From a virus (taxonomy: Duplodnaviria > Heunggongvirae > Uroviricota > Caudoviricetes), in IMG/VR virus record IMGVR_UViG_2534681702_000003, positions 1 through 33,145 of that record: DNA of 33,145 nt; one strand, written 5' to 3'. Positions 23,886 to 24,858 of the stretch are shown in pieces; the stretch's first letter is position 1, and each line of letters opens with the position of its first letter. Both the position numbers and the translations under genes were made by a program. The notes below the pieces were generated by a model. That model had not been told where the DNA came from, did not search any database, and saw only the letters and a program-made list of their open reading frames with translations.

Positions 23886-24858
23886 TCTCCCGCATATTGC
23901 CAGCATGGCTTTTAATGAGCCGCTGATGCTTGAACCCGCCTATGCGCGGGTTTTCTTTTGTGCGCTTGCAGGCCAGCTTGGGATCAGCCGCCTGACGGAT
24001 GCGGTGTCCGGCGACAGCCTGACAGCCGGAGAGGCACCCGCGACGCTGGCGTTATCCGGTGATGGTGACGGACCACGACAGGCCCGCAGTTATCAGGTCA
24101 TGAACGGCATCGCCGTGCTGCCGGTGTCCGGCACGCTGGTCAGCCGGACGCGGGCGCTGAAGCCGTATTCGGGGATGACCGGTTACAACGGCATTATCGC
24201 CCGTCTGCAACAGGCTGCCAGCGACCCGATGGTGGACGGCATTCTGCTGGATATGGACACGCCAGGCGGAATGGTGGCGGGAGCATTTGACTGTGCTGAC
24301 ATCATCGCCCGTGTGCGTGACATAAAACCGGTATGGGCGCTGGCCAACGACATGAACTGCAGTGCAGGTCAGCTGCTTGCCAGCGCCGCCTCCCGGCGTC
24401 TGGTCACACAGACCGCCCGGACAGGCTCCATCGGCGTCATGATGGCTCACAGTAATTACGGTGCTGCGCTGGAGAAACAGGGGGTGGAAATCACGCTGAT
24501 TTACAGCGGCAGCCATAAGGTGGATGGCAACCCCTACAGCCATCTTCCTGATGACGTCCGGGAGACACTGCAGTCCCGGATGGACGCAACCCGCCGGATG
24601 TTTGCGCAGAAGGTGTCGGCATATACCGGCCTGTCCGTGCAGGCTGTGCTGGATACCGAAGCTGCAGTGTACAGCGGTCAGGAGGCCATTGATGCCGGAC
24701 TGGCTGATGAACTTGTTAACAGCACCGATGCGATCACCGTCATGCGTGATGCACTGGATGCACGTAAATCCCGTCTCTCAGGAGGGCGAATATCTGGATT
24801 TTTTCAAAGGCGAGATAGGGAAAACCCATCTGGCTCAGGAGCTGTGGACGCAGATTGA
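23866..24858 (+). pseudogene. C: Truncated head protease/scaffold gene C (about first 308 codons)
   Basis: Matches recalled lambda gpC up to ...[11 protein letters not shown], then 22 unrelated codons and stop. Confidence 0.8.

Follow-up and report, generated by a model that had tools for sequence, protein, structure and literature searches.

A 12,604-bp deletion joining head gene C to tail gene J in a lambda-like potC/potB prophage of enterotoxigenic Escherichia coli

The origin of a defective lambdoid prophage by internal deletion is a textbook kind of event. In the Sp prophages of E. coli O157 Sakai and the cryptic prophages of K-12, morphogenesis genes are hit by deletions, frameshifts and IS insertions, while integrase, regulation, lysis and tail-fibre/lom genes are kept. 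Head-defective lambdoids among the Sakai Sp prophages nevertheless excise, replicate and are packaged with the help of co-resident prophages (PMC2669165). The prophage studied here, referred to as the window (the whole stretch of 33,145 nucleotides that was analyzed), shows the same pattern of loss and retention. Unlike the Sakai and K-12 elements, it has mainly been inactivated by one clean 12.6-kb deletion, and an undeleted relative with 100% identity is known, which indicates that the deletion event is very recent. The K-12 prophage Rac resembles the window in that a tail-gene fragment is followed by lomR-stfR-tfaR-pinR. Rac YnaA was considered as an equivalent of the J C-terminal remnant described below and was dropped, as BLASTP revealed no similarity to J. 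The ETEC reference-genome paper lists PHASTER prophages and describes neither this locus nor its deletion, and no description of this particular deletion was found in the literature.

Phage lambda itself is the closest described system for the late region. From the cos region through codon 308 of gene C, the window shares the gene order of the lambda late operon with 95% DNA identity; at the protein level, identity to lambda amounts to 96-100% for A, W, B and C and to 83% for Nu1. The right part is likewise lambda-like, consisting of the J C-terminus followed by lom and the side tail fibre. In contrast to lambda, the 12.6 kb between lambda positions 5343 and 17944 are missing. In its C-terminal part, J shares only 50% identity with lambda J and carries a 28-residue insertion; hence, the receptor specificity probably differs from that of lambda. 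The early region, with DicB, YdaT and DUF977, is of the Rac/Qin type and unlike lambda's. At the position of the lambda cohesive end, window 19451-19462 reads GGGCGGAAGGCG, with lambda-like sequence directly after it. Compared by eye, this differs from the known 12-nt lambda cohesive end, GGGCGGCGACCT.

The prophage and its C-J junction

The element, a lambda-like prophage, resides between potC and potB in the chromosome of enterotoxigenic E. coli (ETEC). Its integrase gene (1..1119, minus strand), annotated in relatives with 100% identical DNA, lies at the left, potC-proximal end, and the window thus represents essentially the whole prophage. In the relatives and in a contig of E. coli MP021566.1, potC adjoins the integrase end and potB the right end. 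An exact-match look-up of the truncated C protein (C', see below) returned EMX25733.1 of E. coli MP021566.1, and contig AQEU01000005.1 of this draft genome (GCA_000354855.1) is identical to the window across the 19,280 bp retrieved. The early region encodes DicB, a YdaT-like protein, DUF977, hokD, RusA and an N6/N4 DNA methyltransferase, as is typical of the Rac/Qin kind. According to blastn, Pfam and tblastn, the late region is colinear with lambda in the order Nu1-A-W-B-C ... J-lom-stf-tfa and contains a lambda-family terminase and portal.

The first-pass annotation had placed a deletion junction between head gene C and tail gene J at 24780-24800, and both comparison with lambda and comparison with undeleted relatives locate it at a single base within this interval, 24791. 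The sequence of 24780-24800 reads CTCAGGAGGGCGAAT up to the join and ATCTGGATTTTTTC after it. In the blastn comparison, window 19463-24791 corresponds to lambda 13-5343, colinear and with 95.3% identity, and the next match begins at the very same base, 24791, at lambda 17944 inside J. In lambda coordinates, the break is at 5343/17944.

Three complete ETEC genomes, 504838, ATCC 43896 and LR882997.1, show a distance from the integrase to the 3' end of J that is about 12.6 kb longer than in the window. In 504838 and ATCC 43896, the prophage between potC and potB carries the full C-D-E-FI-FII-Z-U-V-G-T-H-M-L-K-I-J block. The ATCC 43896 prophage occupies the same integration site as the window and is 100% identical around the junction. 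It differs in having kept the C-to-J block and in being inactivated by an IS66-family element in terminase gene A, apart from which its late genes are annotated as intact. Over window 1-24791, the two are distinguished by only five substitutions, one 1-nt indel and this IS66-family insertion, which the window lacks. The integrase-to-J spacing of LR882997.1 equals that of ATCC 43896, which suggests the same IS66 insertion there.

The junction (24791..24791) was defined by aligning the window to both parental sequences, left and right, of ATCC 43896 and 504838. The ATCC 43896 prophage matches at 100% over 1897 bp up to base 24791 and at 100% over the 3804 bp to the right of the junction (24791-28594). 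In the reference, these matches are offset by 12,604 bp, with an overlap of 1 nt, such that exactly 12,604 bp are missing. Strain 504838 gives the same break, with flank matches separated by the missing block and a 1-nt overlap. The initial estimate of about 15 kb was therefore too high; the loss amounts to about 12.6 kb in lambda coordinates as well. Base 24791 (T) is common to both parental ends and represents a 1-nt microhomology without filler bases, and no relevant repeats or IS scar were found within 500 bp on either side. In the intact allele, the breakpoints fall in codon 309 of 439 of C on the left and at codon 814 of 1159 of J on the right. This is in good agreement with the proposed join of about codon 308 of C to the last 350 or so codons of J: 308 native C codons and 346 J codons remain.

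Genes lost, truncated and kept

The 3' third of C/Nu3 is lost, together with all genes from D through I and the first 813 codons of J. With lambda proteins and ATCC 43896 proteins as tblastn queries, none of the 14 genes D, E, FI, FII, Z, U, V, G, T, H, M, L, K and I produced a match with E<=1e-3 in the whole window. Nu1, A, W, B and Lom align over their full length, C over residues 1-308, Nu3 over its first ~70 residues and J over its C-terminal third. The earlier view that all genes between C and J are absent thus applies to the 14 genes D to I, but not to Nu3, which is truncated rather than absent.

The truncated head protease gene C' (23866..24858, plus strand, 330 codons) starts with ATG at 23866 and stops at 24858. 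Its 308 native gpC codons are followed by codon 309, which is split, and by an out-of-frame tail of 22 codons derived from J DNA. BLASTP aligns it to lambda gpC 1-308 with 96% identity and agrees with the original description, in which the gpC frame leaves homology after ...RKSRLSGGR and terminates 22 codons later. The S49 peptidase domain is present (Peptidase_S49, PF01343, residues 150-297, E 3.7e-44 in Pfam), whereas the C-terminal, Nu3-identical scaffold portion of the full-length protein (439 aa) is missing beyond residue 308. As Nu3 is the in-frame C-terminal part of C, the Nu3 start and its first codons survive along with C'. In the tblastn comparison with lambda Nu3, the truncated scaffold gene Nu3' (24580..24858, plus strand) begins at 24580 and the alignment stops at the junction, leaving about 70 native codons out of 201.

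On the other side of the junction, the J' remnant (24791..25831, plus strand) comprises the last 346 codons of J, i.e., codons 814-1159 of the intact allele. Its derivation from J had been a point on which the first reading could have failed. BLASTP aligns it to lambda J residues 814-1131 with 50% identity (E 3e-108), and its DNA is 100% identical to J of ATCC 43896. It contains the C-terminal fibre/receptor-binding domains Phage_Tail_Tip (E 4e-32) and Ig_GpJ_C (E 2e-37), both of which span their Pfam profiles end to end or nearly so. The N-terminal ~810 tail-tip residues and the native start codon are lacking. Since 12,604 equals 3 x 4201 + 1 and is not a multiple of three, J' lies in the +1 frame relative to C, which results in a short out-of-frame tail on C' and not in an in-frame C-J fusion. 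A J-matching frame that runs to the stop at 25831 and is followed by lom had been noted at first, and this is what BLASTP and Pfam reveal. The only ORF that gene callers place in J' has 270 codons and starts at an internal ATG (25019-25831). A 435-codon ORF from 24524 is also listed, the first 89 codons of which are out-of-frame C sequence; judged from its sequence, we see no reason to expect its expression. A promoter and terminator scan around the junction and upstream of lom returned no more sites than shuffled sequence. Stranded in a frame other than that of C, the J' remnant would stay untranslated.

Upstream of the junction, the packaging/portal block (19639..23885) is intact. It is composed of Nu1 (19639-20184, Pfam Phage_Nu1), terminase gene A (20159-22084, GpA_ATPase and GpA_nuclease), W (22081-22287) and portal gene B (22284-23885, Phage_portal_2), all on the plus strand and all matched at full length by tblastn with the lambda proteins. 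Downstream, an intact gene for a lom-like outer-membrane protein (25899..26498, plus strand) is covered at full length by Ail_Lom (E 1.3e-128), and its product is 100% identical to the ATCC 43896 protein. The side tail fibre gene (26557-29532, plus strand; phage_tail_N and Phage_fiber_2) is retained as well, as is the complete stretch of side tail fibre and tail-fibre assembly genes (26557..31718, plus strand), which includes an invertible segment. Also kept are int, xis, replication genes, Q-like antiterminators, holins, an M15 endolysin and the cos-like site. The lysis genes are called as complete ORFs, and a 212-codon ORF encodes a CI-like repressor with HTH and Peptidase_S24 domains (Pfam).

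The other genes had been noted to look intact, which is slightly too favourable. It holds for terminase, portal and lysis genes, but not for an exonuclease gene, which is split, for cro-like and DUF4406 genes, which the NCBI annotation flags as frameshifted in relatives with the same sequence, and for the tail-fibre invertase. The 1-nt indel relative to ATCC 43896, a run of five T at 2771-2775 where seven relatives have six T, divides the 823-codon exonuclease gene into two ORFs on the minus strand (2738-3889 and 1419-2759), which carry YdfE_N/YdfE_C and an Rv2179c-like 3'-5' exonuclease domain. Only in the NCBI draft contig was the N-terminal ORF encountered in its broken form, such that a homopolymer sequencing error is possible.

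Reality and origin of the junction

The source of the junction is a draft (WGS) assembly, and similar lambdoid prophages occur several times per E. coli genome, with a median of three query-matching places per genome. Under these circumstances, a false C-J join in a genome that really contains the capsid and tail genes has to be considered. A misjoin by repeat collapse, however, requires long shared sequence, and the two junction ends share a single base. Moreover, exact-protein look-up of the truncated C' led to six separately produced assemblies from several sequencing projects, all of which contain the identical 40-nt junction: NCBI GCA_000354855.1, Logan SRR446881, SRR446882, ERR1937423 and SRR13856706, and ENA ERZ21883069. 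Each of the four Logan contigs matches the window at 100% over 4.5-10 kb. In addition, the sister strain E925, closed with long reads, carries a nested deletion at the same place. We consequently regard an assembly artefact as very improbable. Even less credit can be given to a recombinant that combines the head end of one prophage with a tail end from elsewhere, either a second prophage or another chromosomal site. The identity to 504838, which amounts to 99.1% on the left flank and 100% on the right, might point in this direction. Yet both flanks are 100% identical to a single ATCC 43896 prophage, with order, orientation and potC/potB site unchanged, and colinearity with this prophage extends over the whole window, from the integrase to the potB side. 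The two-prophage recombinant was dropped on these grounds and has next to no probability in our view. The resemblance of the flanks is not due to chance, as both correspond base for base to one contiguous reference prophage.

Exact 40-mer scans of genome and metagenome contig collections for the junction gave no match, and not one of the 5426 complete E. coli genomes searched contains it. The junction is therefore the mark of one particular clone that has not yet been closed. The ENA contig ERZ21883069 NODE_1865, which corresponds to window 13936-25920, shares the 40-nt junction and encodes an identical C' protein. In the flanks, its identity to the window is only 97.8%, with 242 differing positions and 16 gaps over 12 kb that fall on both sides of the junction. 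The assembly has thousands of contigs, and most likely the divergence reflects either a consensus of mixed strains in this large assembly or patchwork recombination with other lambdoid prophages at a later time. It is very unlikely that the same 1-nt junction recurred independently in this contig.

Deletions in four other ETEC genomes were mapped against the intact 504838 copy of the same prophage. Strain E925 has two of them, one from DUF977 to A (12.1 kb) and one from C codon 320 to J codon 607 (11,951 bp). E8 shows four (holin to W, B to FII, Z to H, and L to J) and E1433 three in its potC/potB prophage. E1620 contains two, one of which is common with E1433, while the other engulfs E1433's remaining two. 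The prophage family thus reveals eleven distinct junctions including that of the window, at least ten of them in the four relatives. For ten of the eleven, the prophage DNA that the strain still retains is ~99.9-100% identical to the window, and deletions outnumber point differences among these potC/potB prophage copies. The overlap at all eleven junctions is 0-8 nt; at the C-J junction of E925 it is 'TA'. Such overlaps, as read from the sequences, bear the signature of illegitimate recombination, i.e., replication slippage or end joining. Along this line, one shared base (T) and no scar at the window junction point to illegitimate rather than homologous, IS-mediated or site-specific recombination. 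A search for deletion hot spots, with endpoint pairs counted by hand, gave no convincing excess: two pairs lay within 100 bp versus ~1.3 expected, and seven within 300 bp versus ~4.

The C-J deletion of E925 is nested wholly inside the window deletion, with left ends 33 bp and right ends 619 bp apart. From this nesting, and from the precedent of E1433 and E1620, we conclude that two successive deletions probably produced the junction. One of 11,951 bp, of the E925 type, would have come first, and a further 653-bp deletion would then have removed the first junction. E925 itself is not the ancestor, because it has a further deletion that is absent from the window. Alternatively, the same deletion may have arisen directly from an intact prophage, independently of the E925 event. 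The alignment to the intact parent is clean, with a 1-nt overlap, and requires no intermediate; the prophage often acquires deletions, as seen from at least ten other junctions in four relatives; and no isolate with the E925-type junction but without E925's second deletion was found. Against a single step stands the proximity of the E925 ends: under random placement, simulation gives p ~0.002 for a deletion that close to one of the ten others, and ~0.0005 if it must also engulf it. The nested pair E1433/E1620, moreover, shows that serial enlargement occurs in this prophage. A direct origin consequently remains a sizeable alternative, though the less probable one. A quite different reading holds that the host gains from particle loss and retains the J' remnant, lom, the side tail fibre and cargo, or that a directed mechanism is at work. 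Deletion variants in five strains all keep at least the last 346 J codons together with lom and stf, the allele appears in several samples from different projects, and ERZ21883069 shows the same junction on a 2% diverged background. However, no in-frame start connects J' with C, and the region upstream of it revealed no promoter-like site; the lysis genes are kept, and hence the deletion gives the host no protection from induction. The diverged contig stems from an assembly of thousands of contigs, in which mixing of strain variants is common. A directed mechanism, in turn, is at odds with the junctions of the relatives, which all differ and show 0-8 nt of microhomology. We thus consider selection or domestication unlikely, and the same applies to its extended form, in which the J'-lom-stf block of a maintained allele would be under selection and patched by recombination with lambdoid prophages. 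If it were true, NODE_1865, the one observation that gives any opening to a long-maintained allele, would indicate that the allele has persisted long enough for recombinational patching.

On the basis of these sequence comparisons, we have high confidence in a real, heritable 12,604-bp deletion by illegitimate recombination, most likely two-step, in a lambda-like potC/potB prophage. The deletion represents routine prophage decay by this process. As a single case it matters little, being one more defective lambdoid prophage in which annotation pipelines already mark both gene fragments. Its modest value lies in a very clean example within one ETEC clade, in which the deleted allele can be set beside its 100%-identical undeleted parent, a probable intermediate and no fewer than ten further junctions. 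Together they form a series, dated by identity, in which deletions with 0-8 nt of microhomology, some of them nested, erode the prophage faster than point mutations accumulate. The junction can furthermore be used as a clone marker for the ETEC lineage.

Predicted consequences and further features of the prophage

The prophage had been described as structurally defective, and the gene loss relative to an undeleted, otherwise identical prophage at the same site supports this. The following expectations are derived from established lambda genetics. No prohead would form, as E, D and Nu3 functions are gone and C' is without the scaffold-like C-terminus; nor would a tail, since Z through I are missing and J has lost its N-terminal 813 residues. 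Upon induction, the prophage is predicted to excise, replicate and lyse the cell without producing particles of its own. This lack of capsid and tail holds for the prophage's own genes alone, and a co-resident prophage may supply the proteins. Inducibility is uncertain, given that the cro-like gene is flagged as frameshifted by NCBI in relatives with identical sequence. The lambda packaging minimum is ~38 kb, and the deleted element, with ~33.5 kb, falls below it. For annotators, some caution is indicated, since prophage predictors may wrongly score the element as 'intact'.

Besides the deletion, several features of the prophage may be recorded. The invertible tail-fibre segment (28562-31718), which is enclosed by 33-bp inverted repeats at 28562-28594 and 31686-31718, contains alternative fibre C-termini as well as assembly genes and is flipped relative to 504838 and ATCC 43896. 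Of the Pin/Gin-type invertase beside it (31749-31967), only a 64-72-codon Resolvase fragment is present; any inversion of the segment is thus either old or catalysed in trans. At the right end, among tail-fibre-assembly fragments, the opposite strand encodes a class I SAM-dependent methyltransferase (32154-32822, minus strand). Further cargo on the opposite strand, a DUF6731 protein with a small partner (10422-11831, minus strand), is located between the Q-like gene and hokD. Two tRNA genes (16528-16603 and 16701-16777) lie downstream of the DNA methyltransferase gene and upstream of the lysis genes. One of them has a TCT anticodon (Arg); the other has a CAT anticodon and is assigned to Met by ARAGORN, versus Ile in the NCBI annotation of the relatives.
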